Source: a virus. From it: DNA of 51,657 nt. Position 1 is the first letter of the stretch; each line of letters begins with the position of its first letter. The translations under genes and the position numbers were made by a program. The notes beneath the pieces are model-generated. The model was not told the origin of the DNA, did not search any database, and worked only from the letters and a program-made list of their open reading frames with translations. Location of the stretch: the IMG/VR virus record IMGVR_UViG_3300045988_164158, one strand, 5' to 3'. This document shows positions 28,410-41,006 of the stretch, piece after piece.

Positions 28410-29165
28410 GTGCTAAAAATGGCAAATACAAACGCATTCTCGAAAATTTATGTTTGCCCTGATTCACAGAATGATGAATTGACTGCTGATGATTACGCAG
28501 GGTTAAATTGGGTTTTGATTAAAGGTGTAGGCAACCTTGGTGAAACTGGTAAATCTACTAACATTTTGAGTTATCCTACATGGGAAACCAGTGTATCAGA
28601 TAAAGCCAAAGGTATTACTGATGCGGGTTCCCCGACTCTTGAAGTTGCTCGTGACCCGAAAGATGAAGGTCAGAAAATTCTCAATGCCGCTAGTGCTGTT
28701 GGTAATAATAATAACTATGCTTTTAAAATTGAACGTGCAGATGCCCCGGTTGGTGGTATTGGTACAATTTTGTACAATCGCGGTCTTGTTGCTGGACCGA
28801 CTCGTCCGAACGGACAGAATGAAGATTTTGACTTGGAAGTTTTTACTCTTGCATTGGTTCAGGAAGAAATTGTCGTCCTTCCGACAACTGGTGTTGAAGC
28901 CCCGGTATTGACCGCAGCCCCGAGTATTAGCGGAACGGCAGAAGTCGGAGAAACTTTAACTTGTTCGACTGGTACGTTTACCGGTACGTCTCTTACTTAC
29001 AGTTATCAGTGGTTTGCGAACGGTCTTGTTGTGTCAAATGCTGTTGAAAATACTTATGAATTAACTGAGGCAGATAAAGGTAAAGTCTTTTCTTGTCGTG
29101 TAACTGCTCGAAACAACGGTGGTTCTGCTACTGGTTTTTCAAATACTACAACAGCTGTACTTTAA
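28410..29165 (+). CDS. major tail (tube) protein with C-terminal Ig-like domain
   Basis: Position before the G/GT chaperone genes. High-expression codon usage. The C-terminal 90 aa (SISGTAEVGETLTCSTGTFTGTSLTYSYQWFANG...FSCRVTARN) are Ig-like. Confidence 0.6.
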   Translation: MLKMANTNAFSKIYVCPDSQNDELTADDYAGLNWVLIKGVGNLGETGKSTNILSYPTWETSVSDKAKGITDAGSPTLEVARDPKDEGQKILNAASAVGNNNNYAFKIERADAPVGGIGTILYNRGLVAGPTRPNGQNEDFDLEVFTLALVQEEIVVLPTTGVEAPVLTAAPSISGTAEVGETLTCSTGTFTGTSLTYSYQWFANGLVVSNAVENTYELTEADKGKVFSCRVTARNNGGSATGFSNTTTAVL

Positions 29166-29179
29166 AAAAGGATTGAAAA

Positions 29180-29557
29180 ATGGATATTGCAAAACTTAAA
29201 CCAGCGGAAAGAATAATTGAAATCATTCATCCGGCAACTGGTGAAAATGTTGGTATTAGAGTTACTGTGATTTCACTTGTCGATGAGCGAATGAAAGCTG
29301 TTAGACGTAGATTTCAGAATAAAAAAATCGAGCTTGAAAAACGAGGAAAAACATTTAAAGCCGATGATTTGGAAGAAAACGCAACCGAGCTGCTTTTGAA
29401 TGCTATTACAGGTTGGGATTGGTATGATGCCGAGTTCAACGGTGAAAAACCCGTTTTTAATGAGAAAAATGTTAAAACGGTTTTGAATGAACTTTCATGG
29501 TTTAAGAATCAGATTGTGGAGGCTATCGACGACGAAAAAGCTTTTTTTCAGAGTTGA
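29180..29557 (+). CDS. tail assembly chaperone (gpG-like)
   Basis: Position between the major tail protein and tape measure genes. Followed by a -1 frame ORF with a slippery T7 run. Confidence 0.5.
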   Translation: MDIAKLKPAERIIEIIHPATGENVGIRVTVISLVDERMKAVRRRFQNKKIELEKRGKTFKADDLEENATELLLNAITGWDWYDAEFNGEKPVFNEKNVKTVLNELSWFKNQIVEAIDDEKAFFQS

Positions 29558-29955
29558 AAATAAATTTGAAGGAGGCCGTTCGAATATTTGTTCGTTACGA
29601 CCTCCCAAACGAAAAAGAAGATACTCGTAGAGCATTGAATGAAAGAGTTGGTGTATATACACCGCCTTTTGAAATTCCTGAAGACGGTATATATCTTTGG
29701 AATTGGTTTATAGATATAAACAACAGTGTTTCTCGAATTGATTTTAACGGTTATTATTGTTTAATACCGCCGTCCGAGTTTCTTGCATGGTCGACACTTA
29801 CAGGAAATGCGTTATATCCAGAAGAATATGACATCTTAAGAAATATGGATGCGGTATATTGCAAAGAAGTAAATGCTGAAATACAGTTTAAACGAGCAAG
29901 AGAGGAAGAAGCTCGAAAAAATGAAATAAAAAGTTCAAGAGTGCGGAGAAGATAA
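29554..29955 (+). CDS. tail assembly chaperone GT-extension ORF (expressed via -1 frameshift at 29542-29548)
   Basis: -1 frame relative to G. No ATG; the track start is TTG. Classic G-T arrangement. Confidence 0.45.
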   Translation: MKINLKEAVRIFVRYDLPNEKEDTRRALNERVGVYTPPFEIPEDGIYLWNWFIDINNSVSRIDFNGYYCLIPPSEFLAWSTLTGNALYPEEYDILRNMDAVYCKEVNAEIQFKRAREEEARKNEIKSSRVRRR

Positions 29956-32307
29956 ATGTCCACAGATATTGCAAGAATAGGTTTCGGGGTTGAAACTTCT
30001 CAGCTTGAAAAAGGTGTTTCAGCTCTTAGTACTTTTAGTACATCTGCGAAATCTGCAAATTCAAATGCTCAGGCAATCGGAACAGCAATGAATAAAGCTG
30101 CTGTTACTTTTGCCGGGGCCGTTGCAGGTATGAGCAGAAGTATTGCCAGTTTGGTATCTGCTACTAAAACAGCAACAGTTGAAGAAATCGCCGCTGCTAA
30201 AGAAGCTTCTAATTTTGCCAGTAATATTTATCGTGTTGCACAAGCTCAGGATACCTTAACAGTTAGTACGCAAAAAAGTACCCGCAATTTACAGAACATG
30301 TATTCGGCAATGCTTAAATTAAGTTCTGGTGAATCTATTTTGGAGAGAATCAATAGAATTACCGGAGTTAGTGGGTTGAGTAATAAATCGGCCGAATATT
30401 CCGCTGAATTTTTTAAGCGTTCTACGACTAAAGAAGAATGGAATGCTATGACTGGCAGTCTTGCCAGAGACCAGATGCCTAACAGATTTAACACTGCTAA
30501 TATTGCCGCACAATTTCAAGACATTGCTGTCACTGCTGCAATGGGCATGAATCCTTTAACTGTTGCTTTACAGCAGGGTACTCAATTATCCGCCGTTTTG
30601 AATACAATGGAAAGACCTTTAGAAGGTATCGCTCAAGCATTTAAATCTATTATTAATCCTGTTTCATTAATCAGTATCGGTTTAACAGCTTTAGTTGTTG
30701 CCGGTATTCAAATGGTTGATTGGAGTGAAACAGCGGACAGTGCTTTAAATTCTTTATCTTCCTCTTTTGATTTTGTTACAGAACATGTCGAAGGTTTTAC
30801 AGTAGCTTTAATTGGTTTAACTGCTGCCGGAGTTATTACAACATTTTCATCTTTAGGTGCAGTTGTAAGTAATTTGGGAAAAGTTTTAGGACCTGTAATA
30901 ACATTTTTCACAAAATTTATCAAAATAATAGGTACTGCGTTAACAAGTAAATTTACCATTATAGCATCTGTTATTACAGGTTTAGTATATGGTTTTTCGA
31001 AGTTGAGAGAGTATTTGGAAAATACAACCGGGTTTGATATAACTTTCGGTCTTTGGGATAAATTGACAGGTTTAATTGATAAAGCAGCTGAAGCTCTTAA
31101 AAACTTTTTTAGTATATCAAGTAAAAAAGAAGAATGGGAAGCGTTATCTAAAGGGGCTTTGAGTAATATAGATGATTTGATGACCGAATATTACTCTTTG
31201 TCAATGACCGAAAAAGAAGCCGATAAATATCTTAAAAAGATGGAACTTATTAAAAAAGCTTCTGAAGAAAAAATACCTTTAGAGAATACTTTTGGATTAA
31301 ACGGAAAAACAGGTTATCAGCTTATTGATGAATTAGCTGAACGATATGCTAATTGGAATGAAAAAATAAGACAGACAAAAGATAATATAGAGGAAGCTAA
31401 AAAAGCGGCCGAGGGTTGGGATAAAATATTAAAAAACCACGAGAAAACTGTTGAAGATTTGACCTTAAAAACTCAAACAATAGGTCTTGGTACATACGAT
31501 ACTACTCGTTTGCAAACTCAACTTGATATGTTGAGAAAATTGCAAGAAGTTGGTATTAATAAAACTGATATTATGGACGAAAGTACAGGGCAGACTTATC
31601 TTGATTGGGTAAACGATGCTTCGAGCAAACAAGGTCGATTAGCCGAAGAAAATAAAAAATTAGCTGATAGTTTTGACTTTGCCAAAGATGCTACCAAAAG
31701 CTTTTTTTCTGACATGCGAGAAGGATTGAGAGAAGGTCAATCCTTGTGGGAATCTTTTGGAAATGCAGTTACAAATGTTCTTGATAAGATTCTTGATAAA
31801 ATTATGAACATTGGTGTTGATTATTTATTTGATGCTTTAGGTGGTATGGGTACTAAAGGCGGTAAAACAAGTTTTTCATGGGGAAATATAGCTTCTAGCA
31901 TAGGGGGTTTTTTTGGTGGTAGTACATCTGCGTCTACACCCGCCCCTGCGGCTAAAGGCGGTGCTTTTACGAATGGTGTTTATAGTTCGCCAACATTATT
32001 TAAGTTTGCTAACGGTGGACAGTTTGGTGTTATGGGTGAAGCCGGTCCTGAAGCTGTTATGCCTTTGCGTAGAGGGTCAGACGGTTCTTTAGGTGTCGAT
32101 GCCGAAGGTATAGGCGGTAATAATGTAGTTGTTAACGTTATTAATAATTCAAATGCTCAGGCAAGTGTAAATCAACGAGAAACTAGACAAGGAACTGAAA
32201 TTGATGTATTGATAGACCAAACAGTTGCTCAAAAAATGACTCAACAAGGTTCTTATTCAAATAATGCTTTAAATGCTTATAGTAACCGTCGATTAGTTAT
32301 GAGGTAA
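29956..32307 (+). CDS. tail tape measure protein
   Basis: 783 aa, helical/repetitive, internal hydrophobic segments. Located after the chaperones. Confidence 0.85.
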   Translation: MSTDIARIGFGVETSQLEKGVSALSTFSTSAKSANSNAQAIGTAMNKAAVTFAGAVAGMSRSIASLVSATKTATVEEIAAAKEASNFASNIYRVAQAQDTLTVSTQKSTRNLQNMYSAMLKLSSGESILERINRITGVSGLSNKSAEYSAEFFKRSTTKEEWNAMTGSLARDQMPNRFNTANIAAQFQDIAVTAAMGMNPLTVALQQGTQLSAVLNTMERPLEGIAQAFKSIINPVSLISIGLTALVVAGIQMVDWSETADSALNSLSSSFDFVTEHVEGFTVALIGLTAAGVITTFSSLGAVVSNLGKVLGPVITFFTKFIKIIGTALTSKFTIIASVITGLVYGFSKLREYLENTTGFDITFGLWDKLTGLIDKAAEALKNFFSISSKKEEWEALSKGALSNIDDLMTEYYSLSMTEKEADKYLKKMELIKKASEEKIPLENTFGLNGKTGYQLIDELAERYANWNEKIRQTKDNIEEAKKAAEGWDKILKNHEKTVEDLTLKTQTIGLGTYDTTRLQTQLDMLRKLQEVGINKTDIMDESTGQTYLDWVNDASSKQGRLAEENKKLADSFDFAKDATKSFFSDMREGLREGQSLWESFGNAVTNVLDKILDKIMNIGVDYLFDALGGMGTKGGKTSFSWGNIASSIGGFFGGSTSASTPAPAAKGGAFTNGVYSSPTLFKFANGGQFGVMGEAGPEAVMPLRRGSDGSLGVDAEGIGGNNVVVNVINNSNAQASVNQRETRQGTEIDVLIDQTVAQKMTQQGSYSNNALNAYSNRRLVMR

Positions 32308-33136: not shown

Positions 33137-33531
33137 TGTGGAGTGACAAGTATATTTCCATACCCTTTGCCGACCATGGTCGTTCTAAAAATGGCTGTGA
33201 TTGTTGGGGATTGGTAACTGTCGTATATAAAGAAAAATTTAAGATTGATTTACCTTTTTTGTTAGATTATGATAATGTAAAAGATGTTCGACATATAACT
33301 ACTTTGTGTAAAAATGAATGTGAAAACTGGGAAGAAATATCTAAAAACGAGGAACAACCTTATGATGTATTGGTTTTTAACATTTTGGGCGCTCCTTGTC
33401 ATGTTGCGCTTGTGGTTGAAAAAGGTTTAATGCTGCATACAGAAAAAGGTATTGGTACACATATTAGCGATTATAAACGAGATAAACAATGGTGTAATCG
33501 TTTAGCAGGGATTTACAGATATGTTAAATGA
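33136..33531 (+). CDS. NlpC/P60-family tail assembly protein (lambda gpK-like)
   Basis: GCDCWGLV (catalytic Cys) and CHVALVV (His). The ATG at 33136 overlaps the upstream stop (TAATG). Confidence 0.6.
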   Translation: MWSDKYISIPFADHGRSKNGCDCWGLVTVVYKEKFKIDLPFLLDYDNVKDVRHITTLCKNECENWEEISKNEEQPYDVLVFNILGAPCHVALVVEKGLMLHTEKGIGTHISDYKRDKQWCNRLAGIYRYVK

Positions 33532-36500
33532 AGATATAATCGTTCAAAAATCTGTTTTACCGTTTAGACAGAATTTTGAAACTTTACGATTGCAGGATTG
33601 TAAAACACCTCAAGAAATTGTCAATAAACTTGTACCTTTTAACTTTGTGAATTGCAAGCTTGTTGTAACTCTCGATGGTGAAATATTATCAAAAGACAAA
33701 TGGAATCAAAAATTAAAAAAAGGGCAAATTGTCAGTCTTAATTACGTTCCTACCGGCGGCGATGATGGTAAAGCTGTTATGCAAGTTGTTATAACCATAG
33801 TAGCTATAGTAGCAACTGCATATTTAGGACCCATAGCAGGAGAAGCAATTGCGGCGGGTAATTATGGAACAGCTGCTTTGGCTGGGGCTGGTATTGTAGC
33901 TGTTTCTATGGTTTATAGTATGGCTATGAATGCACTTATGACAACCCCAAAACAATCAGACGGTACATTAGGTTATAAAGATTCTCAAACTCAATTTATT
34001 GAAGGAGCGAGTAATTCTATTAACAAGTTTGGGGTTATACCTGTCAATCTTGGAACAAATAAAATGTTCCCTCCTCAAGCAGCGTTACCTTATACAGAAA
34101 CGTCCGGTAACGACCAATATTGCCGACAGTTGTTTACTTATGGATATGGTAAAGTAACCGTCATTGAACGTAAGTTAGGTGAAACGATTTTAGATGATTA
34201 TGATTATGTGGAAGTTGAAGACAAGCTTAACGCAGATTTAAATTCCGGTACGTCTTTATATGCCAATGACATATATCAGGAAGATTTTAGCATTAAAGTT
34301 ACAAAAGAAGAATCTCCTTTTATTCGTACAACTCAAAAAGATTGTGACGAATGTATCTTAGATTTTACTTTTCAGGGCTTAGTCAATGGTATTACTCAAG
34401 GTAAGTACGCAGGATTAAAACTTAAAACAAGTGTTCAATTTGAAATCCAATTTGCTCCTATAAATACAGAGGATTGGAGTACATCTATTAACGGGGCTAC
34501 AATTCAAGAACAGTCAATAAATGCTGACATAAGTGTTTATTTGTTATACAGATTTTTAAATACTTGGGTTTGCCGTCGTTATTTTCTTGCTTTAAATACA
34601 CAAACCGGTGATATAAGTATTCATTCTGTTGATTCTAAAGTTAACAGACTTGAATATCCGTCTTTGTCTTCTGAATATGTTTATCTTGGTTATTATGAAA
34701 ATGGTTCTTTTCATGATTTAAGACAAAATCTTGTTGGTTCATCAATTGAAAGTATTGATAATTTTATTGTTACTACAGATGTTTCTGATAAATCTAATGC
34801 TTTAATAACTGTCGGAAGTGGTAACATTCTCGGTAGTACTTCAATGATGACGGTAACAGATGCAACATCAAGAGTTTTAAGAGTATCTCGACGAATAGTT
34901 TTTCCAGCAAGAGGTCAATATCAGATAAAAGTAAATCGTTTAACAGACGATTCAAACATTGATAGTTTATTAAATGATTCTTACTGGACGGCTTTAAAAT
35001 CAATTACTTATCGAAACCCTGTTAATTTTCCGAATATTTCAGGTACAGCTATGAGAATTAAAGCTACAGACCAATTGAACGGTACTGTAAATTCTTATAA
35101 CGCCATTGTTTCAACGCTTATGAAATCGTATAATCCTGATAAAGATTTATGGGTAGATGATGTTGCAACCTCCAATCCTGCTGATATTTTTCGATATGTT
35201 TTGCAATCTCCAGCTTTTGCAAAATATGAACAAATTACAGATGATAAAATTGATTTAGAAAAATTAAAAGAGTGGTGGATTTATTGTAATTCATTAAATT
35301 TAACTTTTAATAAAGTTATAGATTCGGATACAAGTATTGATGATGTTTTAAATGATATTTGTGCCGCCGGTGTCGCGACATTATCAAAAGTTGATAATGT
35401 CTTCAGTGTTATTATTGATAACGAACGTCCTTATGTCAAAGGACTAGTAACACCTCGTAATAGTTGGGATTATAAAGGAAATATCAATTATCCAGAACTT
35501 CCTGATGCACTTCGTGTTGAATTTCGTAATGCTGAGATAGGTTATAGTACCGATGAACGTATTGTTTACATGGACGGATTTGACGAAAATAATGCAAAGT
35601 TGTTTGAACGTTTAGAATTTTCAAGTTGTACAAACGCTGATTTGGCTTATTGGTATGGTAGACGATATTTTGCTACAGCTTTATTACAACCCGAAACTCA
35701 CACTTTCAAAATGGATTTTGAACATTTAACTTTTAATCGTGGGGACAGAATCAATCTCGTTAACGATGTCATTCTTGTTGGTGTCGGACAAGGACGTATT
35801 AAAGAGCTTATCACAGACGATGAAAATAATGTTACCGGTTTTGTTATTGATGACGAAGTAAATATTCCTACTAGTAAAAATTTTGCGGTTCGTATTAGAG
35901 ACAATAACGGCAAGGGGTTTAATTATTATTTGTTAAAACAATTTGTCGGAGTTAGCAATAGTTTTACTTTTGCACAATCTTTAACGGCTGAAAATGCCCC
36001 CGCTATTGGAAGTCTTTGCGCTTTTGTTGAAGACGGTAAAGAGCTTGATTTAATCATAACACAGATAAAAACTACCAGCAATGAAACAGCAACTATTACC
36101 GCTGTAGATTATGCTCCTGCAAGATTTACACCTATCGAAGAATTTCCTGAATGGTCAAGTAATATTACAATTCCGGGAGATTTTTATAAACCTTATGCTC
36201 CTGAATTGAATGGTGAAATTAAATCAGATGAATCTGTTATGATTAGAAATTCTGATGGTTCTTTAACTTCAATTATGATTATACCTCTTAAAAATCGTAA
36301 TGAAAATTCGGTAATCCCGGTAATACAAGTGAAAATTACAGGAGCTACTGAATGGTTTATACCAAACACTTTGAAAAACGATTCAAACGAGTTGGTTTTA
36401 ACAGGGCTTAGTGACGGTTCATATTATGATATAAGCATTCGTTATCAGCGTCAGACAGGTTTGCAGTTGCTTTCAGATGCTTTGTATATTAATAACGTTA

Positions 36501-37561
36501 AATTTGTCGGCGGTTCAACACCTCCAAAAGATGTTGAAAATTTTAGAGTTACTGTTACAAACGGATTAGCGCTTTTTGAATGGACTCCGACTGATGATGT
36601 TGACATATCTCATTATGTAATTAAATATTCTTTGGATACAGAAGATGTTAGCTGGGAAAGTGCACAGACAGCTGTTGCAAGAGTTACCAGCAATACGGTT
36701 ACCATGATTATACATCGAGGTATGTATCTTATTAAAGCAGTTGATTTAATGGGTTTTGAAAGTAAGAATCCAACTACTATTATTTCAATTGACAGCGGTG
36801 CTTATAAAAATGTTGTTGAAGAATTGATACAGCATCCAAATTGGGAAGGGAGAAAAGAAAATACATACGCAAGTGGTGGTATTTTAACTTTATCTCCTGA
36901 AAAATCCCAAGGATATTATTATTTTAATCCAGAACCTTTAGATTTAGGAGAAGTATACGAATGTTCTTTAACAGCTGATGTTAAAAGTAATGCTGGAAAC
37001 CGTTCGCGTGTTAGAGATATAGTTTCGGTTCGTTCTGTGGAATCAATTCGAAATTTTAATCTTTATTATCAAATAAGAACTGTTGAAAATATTAGAGCTT
37101 TGGAAGAAATTCGTACATTTTCATCGGCAAATTGGGAAACTCGTCTTGAGATGAATTTAAGCGATGATAATGTAAATTGGACAGGGTGGCAACAGTTTTC
37201 CGCTTCTCAACATACGTTTAGATATTGTAAATTTAGAATATTTTTATTTATTGATAATTTATTTTTTACTCCGAATGTATTAAAAGCGACTGTTACTGTC
37301 GACATGCCTGATAGATATGAAAGCGGTGAAGATATTGTAATAGCAAATGCGGAACTTGGACGTAGCATAACATATGAAAACGCTTTCTGGAACAATCCTT
37401 CAGTTAATGTAACGGTTCAGGATGGTGCTGTTGATGATAGAGTTGAATTTATTAATAAAGATAATAAAGGCTTTACAGTTAAAATTTTTAATGCTACCTT
37501 AAACTCATATGTTACAAGGTCTTTTGACTATATTTCGGCAGGTTACGGAAAGGTTGTTTAA
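33521..37561 (+). CDS. tail tip / host specificity protein, gpI-gpJ-like fusion
   Basis: 1346 aa. The N-terminal 150 aa (a beta-grasp-like segment then the hydrophobic stretch AVMQVVITIVAIVATAYLG) resemble lambda gpI. The remainder is gpJ-like with FN3-type repeats. Confidence 0.7.
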   Translation: MLNEDIIVQKSVLPFRQNFETLRLQDCKTPQEIVNKLVPFNFVNCKLVVTLDGEILSKDKWNQKLKKGQIVSLNYVPTGGDDGKAVMQVVITIVAIVATAYLGPIAGEAIAAGNYGTAALAGAGIVAVSMVYSMAMNALMTTPKQSDGTLGYKDSQTQFIEGASNSINKFGVIPVNLGTNKMFPPQAALPYTETSGNDQYCRQLFTYGYGKVTVIERKLGETILDDYDYVEVEDKLNADLNSGTSLYANDIYQEDFSIKVTKEESPFIRTTQKDCDECILDFTFQGLVNGITQGKYAGLKLKTSVQFEIQFAPINTEDWSTSINGATIQEQSINADISVYLLYRFLNTWVCRRYFLALNTQTGDISIHSVDSKVNRLEYPSLSSEYVYLGYYENGSFHDLRQNLVGSSIESIDNFIVTTDVSDKSNALITVGSGNILGSTSMMTVTDATSRVLRVSRRIVFPARGQYQIKVNRLTDDSNIDSLLNDSYWTALKSITYRNPVNFPNISGTAMRIKATDQLNGTVNSYNAIVSTLMKSYNPDKDLWVDDVATSNPADIFRYVLQSPAFAKYEQITDDKIDLEKLKEWWIYCNSLNLTFNKVIDSDTSIDDVLNDICAAGVATLSKVDNVFSVIIDNERPYVKGLVTPRNSWDYKGNINYPELPDALRVEFRNAEIGYSTDERIVYMDGFDENNAKLFERLEFSSCTNADLAYWYGRRYFATALLQPETHTFKMDFEHLTFNRGDRINLVNDVILVGVGQGRIKELITDDENNVTGFVIDDEVNIPTSKNFAVRIRDNNGKGFNYYLLKQFVGVSNSFTFAQSLTAENAPAIGSLCAFVEDGKELDLIITQIKTTSNETATITAVDYAPARFTPIEEFPEWSSNITIPGDFYKPYAPELNGEIKSDESVMIRNSDGSLTSIMIIPLKNRNENSVIPVIQVKITGATEWFIPNTLKNDSNELVLTGLSDGSYYDISIRYQRQTGLQLLSDALYINNVKFVGGSTPPKDVENFRVTVTNGLALFEWTPTDDVDISHYVIKYSLDTEDVSWESAQTAVARVTSNTVTMIIHRGMYLIKAVDLMGFESKNPTTIISIDSGAYKNVVEELIQHPNWEGRKENTYASGGILTLSPEKSQGYYYFNPEPLDLGEVYECSLTADVKSNAGNRSRVRDIVSVRSVESIRNFNLYYQIRTVENIRALEEIRTFSSANWETRLEMNLSDDNVNWTGWQQFSASQHTFRYCKFRIFLFIDNLFFTPNVLKATVTVDMPDRYESGEDIVIANAELGRSITYENAFWNNPSVNVTVQDGAVDDRVEFINKDNKGFTVKIFNATLNSYVTRSFDYISAGYGKVV

Positions 37562-38098
37562 ATGTCACAAACGTTAGTAGATTTTTCAGGAAATCCTTCT
37601 GGTGCAGAATTGATGGATGATTATCTGACACCAATGCAAGAAAACATTTTAACATCTAACAGCGGCACAACCCGTCCTGATTATGCCAAAGAAGGAACTA
37701 AATGGATTGATAAAACTCAAACCCCTTGGCTTTTAAAACTTTATGATGGTTCACAAGATATTGTTCTCGGAGAACTTGACCCTAACAAACATTCTTTTGT
37801 AGCAACAGACCCGATGACGACAGCGGGTGATTTGATTGTTGAAGGCAATGATGGAATCCCGGTAAGATTAGCTGCTGGAACGGCAGGGCATGTTTTAACA
37901 TCTAATGGTCCGGGAACTTTGCCAAGTTATCAATTAGGTGTTTATGCAAATACTGATTTAAGTAATTTAACTGACGCAGGTAATACTGTTATTGATAATC
38001 GCGTAATAAATCTTATGAATAGTCGTCTTCAGGTAGTTAATAGTTTACCAGAAAATCCTGATTTAGATACGTTTTACTTTATTAAAGAGAGTATTTAA
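37562..38098 (+). CDS. tail fibre protein
   Basis: Position. Ser/Thr/Gly-rich. Confidence 0.45.
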   Translation: MSQTLVDFSGNPSGAELMDDYLTPMQENILTSNSGTTRPDYAKEGTKWIDKTQTPWLLKLYDGSQDIVLGELDPNKHSFVATDPMTTAGDLIVEGNDGIPVRLAAGTAGHVLTSNGPGTLPSYQLGVYANTDLSNLTDAGNTVIDNRVINLMNSRLQVVNSLPENPDLDTFYFIKESI

Positions 38099-39699
38099 TG
38101 ACTGTTTATAAAAGCTCATCGAAAATTGCCGATACTGGCGTTCATGGTATTAATTTCGGGAGTCAGCAAATCAAACAGATTTTTACGGCTCCGAGAACAA
38201 ACGGAATTACTTATATTCCGCAGGACATAAAATTTGAGATTGTTGATGGTACAACGCCGACCCTGTATGCCGGAAGCGAAGTCTGGGTTCCTTATGGCCG
38301 TAACGCTCCTGAATATTCAATCGGCGACAGTCTGAACAGTGGCATTATCACGGCTATAAGCTGGGACGGTTCGGCTTTGTTTTATAAGGTTCGTTATGAT
38401 ACAGACCTTAGCATTGACATCACTTCAGACCCGGCGATTGCCGAGTTCGTGACTTCAATATCTCCATCCTACAGTTTCTGGTGGTTCAATCCCACCTACA
38501 GTCAGGATACGGCGCCAAGCGGCTTCGGACAGTATGCGCTTTGGTACGATACGGCGGAAAATATTGTAAAAATTACGATTGATTCCGGTTCAACGTGGCA
38601 AAATTACGCGTCGCTTCCTGTTGGTGTTTTTACAATGGCTGGCACCGGCGCCACAAAGACGCTTAAATATGTTTTTAACGGCGTCGGCTATATCGGCACG
38701 ACGGTTTTTGCGGTTCCGGGCGTGAAGGGGCTGATGGCCGACGGGTTGAACGAGGACGGCAGCTATAAAACTATTTCCAGAACTATTGAATATATGACGT
38801 ATCGCAATTTGAATTTTTCGAGAGAAAAATTTTATTGTTTCATCAGAATGGATTTGCACGGAATCGACGGCGAACATTACATCGAAGCGGACGAGTTACC
38901 GGAGACGGCAAAACAGTACACAGTTTGTTACCGAAAAACAGATAATACCCTTTGGTGGACGACAGAAGCCAACAGCACTTCATGGTTTCAGATTTGGGCT
39001 ATTCCGGTTGGTTTTATATCATGCGACGACACAAAAATAACATCTTGGGAACCGGCTAAAAACTTTATAAAGGTTTATCAATACAATTCCTATGAACCGC
39101 AACAAATACTTGTTAACATAAGCGGTACTGCGTCAACCGACATTACATTCAAGAGAGGGGTATACTACATCCGGGCGCAGGGCGCTGGCGGTGGCGGCGG
39201 TAATTATGCATATCCTTATGGTAATGGTAACGGCGGTGGTTCTGGCGCAGGTTTTGAAGGATATATTTATGTAAGAAAAGAATTTTCATCGAGTGTTACT
39301 ACAGGAGTTGGTGGAGGTAGCGCATCCGCTGGCGCAAACACTCAAATAAACGGGGTTATGCTGTTAGGTGGTGGTCAAGCCGGTCCAACCACTTCGGGAG
39401 GAACTGTTGACCCATCTGGTGTACCCGGTACTATTACTATTGATAGTAATAATTTGAATAATCTTTTTACTATTGTATCGGCTACCGTAAATCGTAACGG
39501 TAATTACGGTTCCAAAGCCATTGGCGGCAATAGCGTATTAACTAACTCAGGTGCCGGTCAATCTGGCGGTGGTGCCGCTACTGCACCGGGTGCGGGTGGC
39601 GGTGGAACGTCATCCATTGGCGGCAAGGGCGGTCCCGGTGGCGATGGAGAATGCCTTATTCAGTATATTGGTTATGAACCCGAGGGGGGGGGTAACTAA
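38098..39699 (+). CDS. tail fibre protein, Gly-rich C-terminus, terminated immediately after a G9 homopolymer
   Basis: 533 aa. GAGGGGGNYAYPYGNGNGGGSGAG repeats. Locally GC-rich. The stop lies 7 nt after the G9 tract (39684-39692). Confidence 0.6.
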   Translation: MTVYKSSSKIADTGVHGINFGSQQIKQIFTAPRTNGITYIPQDIKFEIVDGTTPTLYAGSEVWVPYGRNAPEYSIGDSLNSGIITAISWDGSALFYKVRYDTDLSIDITSDPAIAEFVTSISPSYSFWWFNPTYSQDTAPSGFGQYALWYDTAENIVKITIDSGSTWQNYASLPVGVFTMAGTGATKTLKYVFNGVGYIGTTVFAVPGVKGLMADGLNEDGSYKTISRTIEYMTYRNLNFSREKFYCFIRMDLHGIDGEHYIEADELPETAKQYTVCYRKTDNTLWWTTEANSTSWFQIWAIPVGFISCDDTKITSWEPAKNFIKVYQYNSYEPQQILVNISGTASTDITFKRGVYYIRAQGAGGGGGNYAYPYGNGNGGGSGAGFEGYIYVRKEFSSSVTTGVGGGSASAGANTQINGVMLLGGGQAGPTTSGGTVDPSGVPGTITIDSNNLNNLFTIVSATVNRNGNYGSKAIGGNSVLTNSGAGQSGGGAATAPGAGGGGTSSIGGKGGPGGDGECLIQYIGYEPEGGGN

Positions 39700-40195
39700 G
39701 CTAGAGTATTTTCAAACCCCAACATTAACTGCGTCAATAACCCCTGTTGCAGAGGGTAATATTGTCGTAACCTCAAGCTACAATAATACGAGTTCTTGGA
39801 ACAATTTGTGCAACAACAGTTATATTATGAGGAATACTATTTCAACTACCTCTGATAGCGGTTATTGGCAGATGAATGGTTCTAATACTCAATGGCTGCA
39901 AATTAAATTTCCCTATACATTGATAATAAAGGGAATGACAATCGCAAGCCGACCGAATGATAATTATACCGGAACGGTAACGGCCTATACGAACGCCGAT
40001 AAAATCGTTAATATGGGTTCGGTTACGACCAACGCTAAAGCAACCAACTTTACATTAACTAACATAGGAATTGGAGCTTTTGTAACAGATACAATTTATC
40101 TTTATATTACGGATATGAATGAATGGTACGGTTTGCAGAATTTGCAGATAAGAGGATATAAGGTTTTAGACAAATCTCTCTCTCTCTTTCTCTGA
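39551..40195 (+). CDS. tail fibre C-terminal module in a shifted frame (out of frame with the 38098..39699 gene because of the G9 tract). Coding sequence probably begins only after 39693.
   Basis: Downstream of the G tract the frame-2 translation (KLEYFQTPTLTASITPVAEGNIVV...) is fibre-like. The upstream 140 nt of the track ORF overlap the Gly-rich gene in another frame and are unlikely to be coding. Confidence 0.45.
   Translation: MPVNLAVVPLLHRVRVAVERHPLAARAVPVAMENALFSILVMNPRGGVTKLEYFQTPTLTASITPVAEGNIVVTSSYNNTSSWNNLCNNSYIMRNTISTTSDSGYWQMNGSNTQWLQIKFPYTLIIKGMTIASRPNDNYTGTVTAYTNADKIVNMGSVTTNAKATNFTLTNIGIGAFVTDTIYLYITDMNEWYGLQNLQIRGYKVLDKSLSLFL
39684..39692. repeat. G9 homopolymeric tract at the junction between two tail-fibre reading frames
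   Basis: Only G/C homopolymer of 8 or more in the window. A change of -1 or +2 G fuses the 38098 ORF to the downstream fibre domain. Confidence 0.9.
40175..40193. repeat. (TC)n dinucleotide tract (TCTCTCTCTCTCTTTCTCT) at the 3' end of the fibre module, ending in its stop codon
   Basis: Direct reading. Adding one TC unit puts the downstream 40218 ORF in frame. Confidence 0.85.
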
Positions 40196-40217
40196 GCCAG
40201 ACCCAGAGCCAAGTGAA

Positions 40218-40502
40218 GTGACTTATTATTGCTATGATGATACGGGAAGTAATTACACTTATTTGTATACAACGACAACCAATTTTGTAGTTGGCAAACC
40301 TGTTACTTTTCATATCAATAAGCAAATAAAAGATAATGTTGCGTATACAGAGTTGGCGACTTCTTCCGCCGATTTTAACGATACTGTTTCAGTAACCCCG
40401 ACGAACTTGGGAACAAATACTTTTAAATATGAATTATTAATGTCTGGATATTACTTAACTTATGAATTCAAACGAACCCCTGATTATGATTTTACAGAAT
40501 AA
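40218..40502 (+). CDS. hypothetical fibre-associated protein / possible distal fibre domain (GTG start)
   Basis: ORF in frame 0. The frame is open for 48 nt upstream, back through the TC tract. Confidence 0.35.
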   Translation: MTYYCYDDTGSNYTYLYTTTTNFVVGKPVTFHINKQIKDNVAYTELATSSADFNDTVSVTPTNLGTNTFKYELLMSGYYLTYEFKRTPDYDFTE

Positions 40503-40504
40503 TT

Positions 40505-40803
40505 AGGCAGTTCTCTCCCAGATATTAACGGCCAAATTTGTTCTGGTTATTGTCGCTTTAAGACCTGATTTGGTAGAATCGGTAGTTACGCCGTAGATTC
40601 CTCGACTGACACCAGTACCAGCAGATGAAGAAAGAACTTCACTAGCGTTTCTACCATAAGCGGTTTTTTCAGCATATAAAACATCGTTTGTACCTTGAAT
40701 AATGCCATATTTGCCATTGGGATTTGCAGAAACATTTACAGGACCTTGTAAGCCAAGAGCTAAACCATTACCTGCAACACTTGCGGATGTATTAACATCA
40801 ATA
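40505..40803 (-). pseudogene. start-less antisense ORF fragment (about 100 aa) resembling a tail-fibre C-terminal segment
   Basis: Minus-strand open frame IVIDVNTSASVAGNG...NIWERTA with no ATG/GTG/TTG start (TGA immediately upstream). Its N-terminus resembles TITIDSNNL...NGNYG of the 38098 gene. Confidence 0.35.
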
Positions 40804-41006
40804 ACAATATTTCAGAACGTCATAAAATTATCATTAAATCCAGATATATCGACAAGCTTAAATTTAAGCAAATACCTGATGTTAAAGGTGTTAATTGTGA
40901 ATTAAGACATGTCATGAATTTGCATAAAGAAGTCATAGACAAACTTATAAATCTTTAAAATCAATACTTTATCTTTACATATTTTCAACATTTTAAATTT
41001 TATACA

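Follow-up and report, generated by a model that had tools for sequence, protein, structure and literature searches.

The virus genome recorded in IMG/VR as IMGVR_UViG_3300045988_164158, which we analyzed as one stretch of 51,657 nucleotides (nt; in the following the window), raises the question why a tail fibre gene stops directly behind a run of nine guanines (G9) and is followed by a second fibre-like reading frame that is not joined to it. Such an arrangement can be read as a switch, as a site of recoding, as a gene in decay or as an error of sequencing or assembly. The comparison with relatives, which come from human-gut metagenomes, revealed two repeats of variable length at the domain boundaries of this gene, and we consider it likely that both are switches that generate short, medium and long fibre isoforms by replication slippage in a heritable and in principle reversible manner. 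The elements of the locus in the window are listed below; ON denotes a repeat length that joins the frames on both sides and OFF a length that separates them.

38098..39699, plus strand: fibre module 1 ("short fibre"), 533 amino acids (aa) with G9, PHROG tail fibre families 6202 and 863
39675..39677, plus strand: ATG within TAT-GAA (Tyr-Glu), candidate reinitiation start, 20 nt before the module-1 stop
39684..39692, plus strand: G9 homopolymer, the junction 1 switch, frame set by tract length
39693..39699, plus strand: TAACTAA, stops for both OFF frames directly after the tract; encodes V-T-K/N in the ON frame
39692..40195, plus strand: fibre module 2 (about 166 codons, frame 2), unjoined in the window, predicted galactose-binding-domain-like beta-sandwich
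40175..40186, plus strand: (TC)6 in a CT-rich linker (about 40173..40193), the junction 2 switch, frame 2 to frame 0
40188..40502, plus strand: fibre module 3 (about 100 codons, frame 0; listed as open reading frame 40218..40502), corresponding to the last about 100 residues of the relatives of about 800 aa

A first reading of the sequence alone (the sequence-only reading) had described the G9 as the only G or C run of eight or more in a genome of roughly 36% GC. The tract is indeed the sole G or C run longer than six in the window, which contains four G6 runs and no C run of six or more; the GC content has to be corrected to 37.3%, and 0.016 runs of nine or more G are expected from base composition. 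It was also right that the fibre open reading frame (ORF) 38098..39699 (frame 1, 533 aa) ends 7 nt past the tract, with the TAA at 39697..39699 (positions 39680..39699 read ccGAGGGGGGGGGTAACTAA), and that a fibre-like sequence follows in the +1 frame: frame 2 is open from 39542 to 40195, reading ...VTKLEYFQTPTLTASITPVAEGNIVV..., and extends 166 codons beyond junction 1. Its prediction that a G8 or G11 allele would yield one fibre of about 700 aa agrees with the alleles rebuilt in silico, which give continuous products of 698 and 699 aa, respectively. With G9 the product has 533 aa and stops two codons after the tract, and with G10 or G7 it has 532 or 531 aa and the TAA follows the tract directly. 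The tract lengths consequently fall into three classes, with G8, G11 and G5 in frame with module 2, G9, G12 and G3 as one OFF class and G10 and G7 as the other. The motif TAACTA(A/G) is kept 3' of the tract in every locus having junction 1.

The two-form picture of a short and a long fibre drawn from the sequence alone holds for junction 1; it missed a second switch and the third module. The stop of module 2, a TGA at 40193..40195, is located just past the (TC)6 repeat, and the ORF 40218..40502 (frame 0) is open back to 40170. If junction 1 is ON, a change to (TC)7 or (TC)4 results in silico in a single ORF of 799-802 aa. Among the rebuilt alleles, OFF states give products of 531-534 aa, those with junction 1 alone ON 698-706 aa and those with both junctions ON 799-802 aa, and natural proteins are known for each of these three classes. 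The window is OFF at both junctions; its relatives are ON/OFF (about 700 aa) or ON/ON (about 800 aa). Peptides spanning the junctions of the joined forms read ...YEPEGG(G)VTK/NLEYF... and ...SLSLSFSEPDPEPSEV... / ...KVKKKYLVNEPS.... When the window was scanned for homopolymers of at least eight, G/C runs of at least six and di- to hexanucleotide repeats, G9 and (TC)6 were the only ones located at junctions between long open frames, and none of the twelve A8/T8 runs in the window lies at such a junction. A (TAA)4 repeat at 28703..28714 is placed away from any ORF junction.

Relatives of the window vary at junction 2 as well. One of them, L008 (L numbers denote the relative loci and P numbers proteins), has a linker identical to that of the window except for a (TC)7 and is ON. 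L037 and L027 differ from each other in TC copy number, and among the relatives in general the CT tract varies in TC copy number and in the neighbouring T/C runs. In other lineages the TC repeat is replaced by poly-A, with A9 being ON and A8 and A10 being OFF. The poly-A lineages carry an alternative module 3 (...ATRYPAGDIY), and some few lineages are entirely devoid of a third module. The occurrence of different repeat chemistries, (TC)n and A(n), at one and the same boundary suggests a convergent recruitment of mutable linkers, as far as this can be read from sequence.

Evidence for switching also comes from the DNA of 38 relative loci, which we compared at the junctions in the form of assembled contigs. 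The following states of the G tract were found:

G8: L001, L002, L005, L008, L009, L029 and L037
G11: L004, L028 and L031
G9: the window and L026
G10: L027
G12: L016
G5: L007
G3: L014
G5AG8 or G5AG9: L033, L034 and L032
G4TG5: L036

Some of these sequences are nearly isogenic, and comparing them is the most informative. L032, L033, L034 and L038 (SRR32648387, -373, -389 and -388), which are Logan contigs from neighbouring runs of the Sequence Read Archive (SRA), have 2,664 nt in common and differ by four single-nucleotide polymorphism (SNP) sites and by two indel sites, a single G of the G tract and a single A of the poly-A tract; their products are 533, 780 and 693 aa long. L004 (IMG/VR, G11, ON) and L016 (European Nucleotide Archive (ENA), G12, OFF) are distinguished by one SNP and one G over 2,430 nt. 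Likewise, the window, L037 (G8) and L027 (G10) are about 98% identical over about 3 kb with internal indels only at both repeats, and the ON/ON protein of L037 is 97% identical to that of the window. A strong mosaicism was observed between window 38098..40502 and L008, L027, L028, L029 and L031. The identity of L008 to the window, for instance, is 87.9% in module 1 and 98.5-99.9% in modules 2 and 3 and downstream, and this mosaic pattern therefore places recombination breakpoints near junction 1.

To extend the analysis to the protein family, a search with the virtual G8 fusion was performed, which yielded 120 protein clusters; the state of junction 1 was scored for 84 related clusters. The proteins fall into three length classes: those that stop at the tract have about 530 aa, those that read through it about 700 aa and those that read through both junctions about 800 aa. 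Junction 1 is embedded in a conserved context (...C-L-I-Q-Y-I-G/S-Y-E-P-E, the linker, and V-T-N/K-L-E-Y-F...), and it is ON in 68 of the 84 clusters (81%) and OFF in the remaining 16. The linker of the ON proteins is GGGV in 23 clusters and GGV in 19, and about 11 of the 68 have interrupted tracts, with linkers such as GWGV, GEGGV, GKV, GRV, GEV and SRV. The OFF proteins terminate in EGGGN*, EGGGGN*, EGGG*, EGG* or EGWG*, so that both OFF frames are represented. Among proteins with junction 1 ON, the CT-rich type of junction 2 is ON in 12 clusters and OFF in 11, and the poly-A type (K-V-K-K-K-Y-L-V-N-E-P...) is ON in 14 and OFF in 22; the OFF proteins of the poly-A type end in KKNT* or KKKILS*, which again corresponds to two OFF frames. 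We reconstructed the state of junction 1 by Fitch parsimony on a neighbour-joining tree of module 1 alone (82 tips), and at least 15 independent state changes are needed to account for the 16 OFF tips. As the OFF tips are scattered singly on the tree, the OFF state therefore arose repeatedly and recently and was not inherited by clades.

The tract itself appears to be under selection. GGG makes up 5 of the 78 glycine codons in module 1 (6.4%) and 13% in nine other large genes, whereas the two or three glycine codons within the tract are GGG throughout the lineages, even in those in which dS (the synonymous component of dN/dS, the ratio of non-synonymous to synonymous substitution rates) of the adjacent module 2 exceeds 1. 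Since these codons are all GGG across synonymously saturated lineages, the homopolymer itself is conserved and not just the Gly-Gly pair. This codon pattern is the signature of a mutable site that is maintained, and the interrupted tracts would look like an occasional "locking" of the switch. Module 2 forms an uninterrupted block of 152 codons in 17 of 17 loci, no matter whether junction 1 is ON or OFF, and its pairwise dN/dS is 0.04-0.25, also for pairs with an OFF genome; being intact and with dN/dS far below 1, it is therefore maintained as coding sequence. The module 3 of the poly-A lineage is constrained as well (dN/dS 0-0.2). Four of the features that define a contingency locus are found here: an intragenic repeat, a change of frame by repeat units, polymorphism between near-isogenic sequences far above the background of mutation and maintenance of the repeat; a fifth, frequent and reversible switching within a clonal population with an effect on the phenotype, would be expected. 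The slipped-strand phase variation proposed by the sequence-only reading gains support from the tract polymorphism between G3 and G12, the near-isogenic pairs, the at least 15 switches and the GGG codons; that reading would have been abandoned if the downstream domain were never detected in virions and showed no conservation in relatives, and in the relatives the domain turned out to be intact in all 17 loci and fused in 68 of the 84 clusters.

What the modules may be was judged from predicted folds. The C-terminal third of module 1 (about aa 340-520) is a glycine-rich adhesin-type domain that is rich in GGGxGG-type motifs. In an AlphaFold2 (AF2) model of an 801-aa relative, the predicted local distance difference test (pLDDT) score is 54 overall and about 90 for residues about 340-520; a second model covers modules 2 and 3 as called in the OFF genome of P0128. 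With residues about 340-520, Foldseek found the fibre of cyanophage Pam3 as best match (7ypx_A, E=3e-7, 27% identity over 214 columns), followed by the Bxb1 tail tip (9d93_Q, E=5e-5). Pam3 gp24 combines a TNF-like domain with a glycine-rich lattice and is the receptor-binding distal tip, like gp38 of S16 (PMC9608196). The same combination of a TNF-like domain and a lattice domain with glycine-rich motifs is predicted for module 1. In Pam3 and S16 the glycine-rich domain ends the protein, whereas most of the relatives studied here extend beyond it into one or two further modules. Because its C-terminal part matches the tip of Pam3 gp24, the short product of 533 aa appears to end in a complete adhesin-type domain. 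In addition, one subfamily ends naturally at ...YEP* and has no module 2 downstream; with these natural endings and the tip-like last domain, the short form resembles a viable fibre that stands alone, as judged from the models.

For module 2 the Pfam family F5_F8_type_C scores 15.2 bits (E=0.024), which is below the gathering cut-off of 28.2. Foldseek returned 31 matches in the PDB with E<=1e-3 and a template modelling score (TM-target) of 0.45-0.66 for a model whose core pLDDT is stated as 70-86 and also as only 55-86, and these structures include APC10/DOC, the CBM32 modules of AlyQ and NanJ, fucolectins and F-type lectins, and discoidin. According to these models, module 2 is probably, with moderate confidence, a galactose-binding-domain-like lectin module of the CBM32/discoidin/F-lectin type. 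Neither AF2 model gave a confident fold for module 3. A homologue of module 2 also exists as a gene of its own: L035 (1006..2494; Logan ERR13765217) codes for a stand-alone protein of 227 aa (P0135) with 46% identity and a good Shine-Dalgarno sequence, 3' of a gene for a 267-aa fibre-like protein; this phage is unrelated and encodes DUF4376 proteins and a Peptidase_M15_3 lysin. On account of this stand-alone gene, module 2 can therefore be regarded as an autonomous unit. In P0057 (633 aa, Logan contig of 2,846 nt) module 2 is missing in frame and junction 1 leads straight into module 3 (...EPEGGGVTKLE|PSEVTYYCYDD...); its sequence suggests an origin via recombination between the two linker regions.

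Module 1 is variable in a different way. An extra domain of about 180 aa is present inside it, after about residue 130, in P0023, P0060, P0083, P0085, P0090, P0095, P0098 and P0100 as well as in L007 (4001..6637), and these relatives have 700-880 aa and an unchanged N-terminus and junction-1 tract. We also considered a fusion of the upstream 178-aa ORF to the fibre as a further junction. This idea was rejected, as the longer relatives have the internal insertion of about 180 aa and the same N-terminus.

From these data the following picture of the locus may be drawn. The G tract and the TC or poly-A repeat would be two hypermutable repeats at the domain boundaries of one modular fibre gene, and slipped-strand mispairing during replication of the phage DNA would add or remove repeat units at junctions 1 and 2, each unit change shifting the downstream module into or out of frame. 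The short isoform of about 530 aa would end in the glycine-rich adhesin domain resembling Pam3 gp24 and S16 gp38, the medium isoform of about 700 aa would additionally carry the CBM32/discoidin-like lectin module, and the long isoform of about 800 aa the small third module on top; the window genome would represent the short, OFF/OFF state. It seems feasible that switching is frequent while a population replicates, that virions assemble with each of the three isoforms and that the isoforms have different receptor or host specificities, which would amount to bet-hedging.

Several points weigh against this picture. The evidence consists of assembled contigs and protein records, and the exact strain of the window is on record as the G9/(TC)6 form only: an exact look-up of the window protein with ten alternative repeat states, which included G7, G8, G10, G11 and G12 and also (TC)4, (TC)5 and (TC)7, in about 15 billion proteins found none of them. 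The fold assigned to module 2 comes from models of modest confidence together with a Pfam match below threshold, and the dN/dS of the window-type module 3 (about 0.4-1.9 at dS <0.06) stems from too little divergence to infer constraint. Finally, the G3 tract of L014 looks locked OFF, yet modules 2 and 3 are intact. This locus (OHTG01000193.1) has a tract shrunk to G3 (GAGGGTAACTAA) that is no longer mutable, and its junction 2 is ON with A9; either the contraction is very recent or the modules are expressed by another route. In the tract class of L014 an ATG embedded in TAT-GAA is in frame with module 2.

This ATG leads to an extension of the switch model in which each junction is a three-state device and this design is general in a widespread family of gut phages; with the second switch, up to about six tip configurations could arise. 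We regard this extension as doubtful. At junction 1, the ON state would be the covalently extended fibre, G10 and G7 may give a clean short fibre, and in the G9, G12 and G3 class termination and reinitiation at the ATG at 39675 could release the lectin-like module as a free subunit that acts in trans. A separate module-2 protein is conceivable because of the stand-alone homologue P0135 in L035, and the ATG is in frame with module 2 in the G9/G12/G3 class only and was used as start by gene callers for P0128. No Shine-Dalgarno sequence precedes the ATG at 39675..39677, and it is not conserved (TAC-GAA in L002, L007, L009 and L018), so that its role as a termination-reinitiation start for a free module 2 is weakly indicated and speculative. 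If the extension were true, the locus would be a virus-encoded and enzyme-free combinatorial generator of tropism against hosts with phase-varying surface glycans.

The most serious competitor of a genetic switch is recoding from a fixed genome, either by a ribosomal +1 frameshift on GGG-GGG-GGU or by slippage of RNA polymerase on G9 and on A8 or (TC)n, so that short and long fibres would be made in a fixed proportion in each infection, as in lambda G/GT or T7 10A/10B. Ribosomes and RNA polymerase are inherently prone to slip on homopolymer runs of 8-12, and some leakage from OFF templates is likely at runs of this length. The phage furthermore carries a site of the classical programmed type elsewhere, a T7 heptamer in the tail chaperone region, and would thus make use of recoding, and a hairpin is predicted downstream of the tract (39730..39770, within the conserved PVAEGNIVV coding region; -19.4 kcal/mol in a 98-nt window, z=-2.7 versus shuffles). 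This hairpin, however, begins about 38 nt past the tract and is probably too distant to stimulate a shift, the flanks of junction 2 fold no better than shuffled sequence, and an Rfam search around the junctions gave no match. A +1 shift normally requires a slow A-site codon, whereas the A-site codon here, GGU, is the commonest glycine codon. Programmed frameshifts keep a fixed out-of-frame arrangement, and this is not conserved here: the frames are joined in 68 of the 84 clusters, both OFF frames occur, and lineages with interrupted tracts (GKV, GRV, GEV and SRV) read straight through. As the polymorphism between near-isogenic DNAs accounts for the observed states without any recoding, we consider recoding unlikely as the main explanation.

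A one-way decay, in which modules are lost by frameshifts at fragile repeats and no adaptive and reversible switch exists, is still less probable and in our view can largely be discounted. The repeats would then be mutational weak points or linkers for recombinational shuffling of modules, and a number of observations fit this idea: natural short fibres without module 2 exist, P0057 lost module 2 by an in-frame deletion, the G3 of L014 looks locked OFF, the mosaic identity patterns reveal recombination breakpoints near the junctions, and the share of genomes with junction 2 OFF is about half or higher, which is near the two-thirds expected without selection. For junction 1 the data point in the opposite direction. 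It is ON in 81% of the clusters versus a neutral expectation of one-third, the OFF tips are single and scattered (at least 15 events for 16 tips) and do not form decaying clades, module 2 is free of stops and indels in all OFF genomes and has a dN/dS far below 1, and the GGG tract is kept against a strong codon bias, which is the opposite of selection against a fragile site.

The last alternative, an error of sequencing or assembly that hides true G8 and (TC)7 repeats in one continuous ORF, could draw on the facts that homopolymers of nine or more are classic sites of indel errors, that most relatives are in frame at junction 1 and that the exact alternative alleles of the window are not on record, but it is hardly credible in view of the identical G9/(TC)6 on several contigs and from several sources (NCBI, JGI/IMG, ENA and Logan, including a 129-kb ENA scaffold), the second break in a dinucleotide repeat that is not error-prone for a short-read consensus, the OFF states in 16 independent clusters, in both frames and from many studies and assemblers, and tract lengths that span G3 to G12 (up to 9 nt) and not just plus or minus one. 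Programmed frameshifting and sequencing error had both been named as alternatives in the sequence-only reading; they are poorly supported as primary explanations.

We therefore return to the two serial switches and compare them with known systems. To our knowledge, polyG switches of phages are known in Campylobacter phages only, and our literature searches found no description of a serial repeat-gated fibre extension in gut phages. In Campylobacter Fletchervirus, as far as the accounts used here describe it, receptor-binding proteins (RBPs) are phase-variable by polyG tracts and phage populations are mixed (Sorensen 2021, Cell Rep 35:109214, via PMC8713573; cited in PMC10579305 and PMC12823448). 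According to the same accounts, both systems have a polyG tract in a receptor-binding gene whose length decides whether a receptor-binding function is made. The likeness is one of mechanism and not of family, as a tblastn search with the 801-aa fibre against 50,697 phage records gave no sequence homology. Judged by these accounts, Fletchervirus comprises myoviruses of about 130 kb with a polyG-rich host, in which whole alternative RBP genes are turned ON or OFF; here we deal with a siphovirus-type gut phage of about 51 kb, in which repeats between domains truncate or extend a fibre that is predicted to be functional in either form. Two switches in series, G(n) followed by (TC)n or A(n), with three nested isoforms likewise distinguish it from what is described there.

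The contingency loci of T2 and T4 (agt and rIIA; A6-A9 type) inactivate accessory genes, and repeats are depleted in the tail-fibre genes of coliphages (Gomez, Barrick and Waters, bioRxiv 10.1101/2025.10.21.683753). These loci share with the locus described here short repeats in coding regions, a reversible frameshift by polymerase slippage and bet-hedging; in contrast to them, the repeats in our family are positively maintained in a fibre gene and change its domain composition instead of knocking it out. Bacterial contingency loci (Campylobacter, Haemophilus, Neisseria and Helicobacter) are similar in that the number of units in an intragenic homopolymer or dinucleotide repeat sets the frame, that tracts are polymorphic between near-identical genomes and that the repeat is kept against codon bias. 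They differ in that the present locus is borne by a virus, that its OFF state is a shorter but apparently complete fibre and that two serial repeats lead to a graded outcome. The invertible G/C segments of Mu and P1 and the diversity-generating retroelement of Bordetella phage BPP-1 vary fibre tips (cited in PMC10579305 and PMC12823448) and are likewise genetic mechanisms that vary the distal receptor-binding end of a fibre within a lineage, but no invertase, inverted repeats or reverse transcriptase are involved here and replication slippage suffices. For gut phages, polyG tracts have been named merely as a possible determinant of host range (2025 Nature paper, PMC12823448).

Serial repeat-gated C-terminal extension of the fibre in a family of gut siphoviruses is, on the sequence evidence, strongly supported as a known mechanism in a new architecture. 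Here, a family of uncultured human-gut phages has slippage-prone repeats positively maintained at fibre domain boundaries, and a single-unit slip would add or remove a lectin-like tip module and not destroy the fibre. This bears on the open question of how gut phages cope with hosts whose surface structures vary. If confirmed in populations, it would provide a directly testable model of bet-hedging in gut phages, it would serve as a warning for annotation that a fibre gene which looks "split" at a homopolymer may reflect biology and not error, and it would offer phage engineering a simple scheme, with no need for an enzyme, by which receptor-binding modules can be switched.

The genomic context of the locus is that of a distal tail module. 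Directly upstream of the fibre gene lies:

33521..38098, plus strand: GpJ-like central tail fibre (1346 aa) and a 178-aa protein, distal tail module

The GpJ-like gene matches the Pfam family FNIII-A_GpJ (E=1.4e-14) and PHROG 31 "central tail fiber J" (E=3e-73), and the gene order GpJ-like fibre, 178-aa protein and fibre is identical in all relatives. The window also encodes a P22-type coat protein, portal, large terminase, primase, helicase and a cell-wall hydrolase, and its gene content looks like that of a complete siphovirus-type genome of about 51.6 kb. Shine-Dalgarno motifs precede about 40% of its genes, and no tRNA genes were found in the window. For the large terminase, Rhizobium siphoviruses are the nearest match (62%), followed by cyanophage Pam3 (47%) and Klebsiella phages (about 43-46%). 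At the nucleotide level, neither the window as a whole nor its region 37500..40600 (megablast) has a relative among the 50,697 deposited phage genomes. A host was sought in 185,579 reference genomes by two scans, one with a fibre alignment and one with distant long-contig relatives, and neither found a copy. L026 (ENA ERZ28595215 scaffold_150, 129,077 nt) is 100% identical to the window over the locus; it was considered as a prophage, which is less likely, since its length corresponds to 2.50 x 51,657 nt and it is not collinear with one integrated copy, and it is probably an assembly artefact of a concatemer or circular genome.

Further differences between relatives were seen 3' of the fibre gene. 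In L027-L031 and L037 a minus-strand gene for 136 aa (MNSLYPIGSIYFGT...) lies directly 3' of module 3 and is convergent with the fibre gene. In the window (40506..40811, minus strand) this gene is truncated: compared with L027, a deletion of 544 nt has left residues 35-136. L029 (7383..8739; ENA ERZ28618885 scaffold_532) carries a fragment of an IS1595-family transposase and a KilA-N/BstA_C protein some 1 kb past the fibre locus; the window has other small ORFs at this place. Upstream of the tape-measure gene (29956..32307), seven T in a row (heptamer T TTT TTT) at 29541..29547 are located 15 nt before the stop of ORF 29180..29557, and from 29506 on the -1 frame stays open into ORF 29554..29955. 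By analogy with the textbook site, this heptamer is expected to be a programmed -1 frameshift site of the lambda G/GT type for the tail assembly chaperones.

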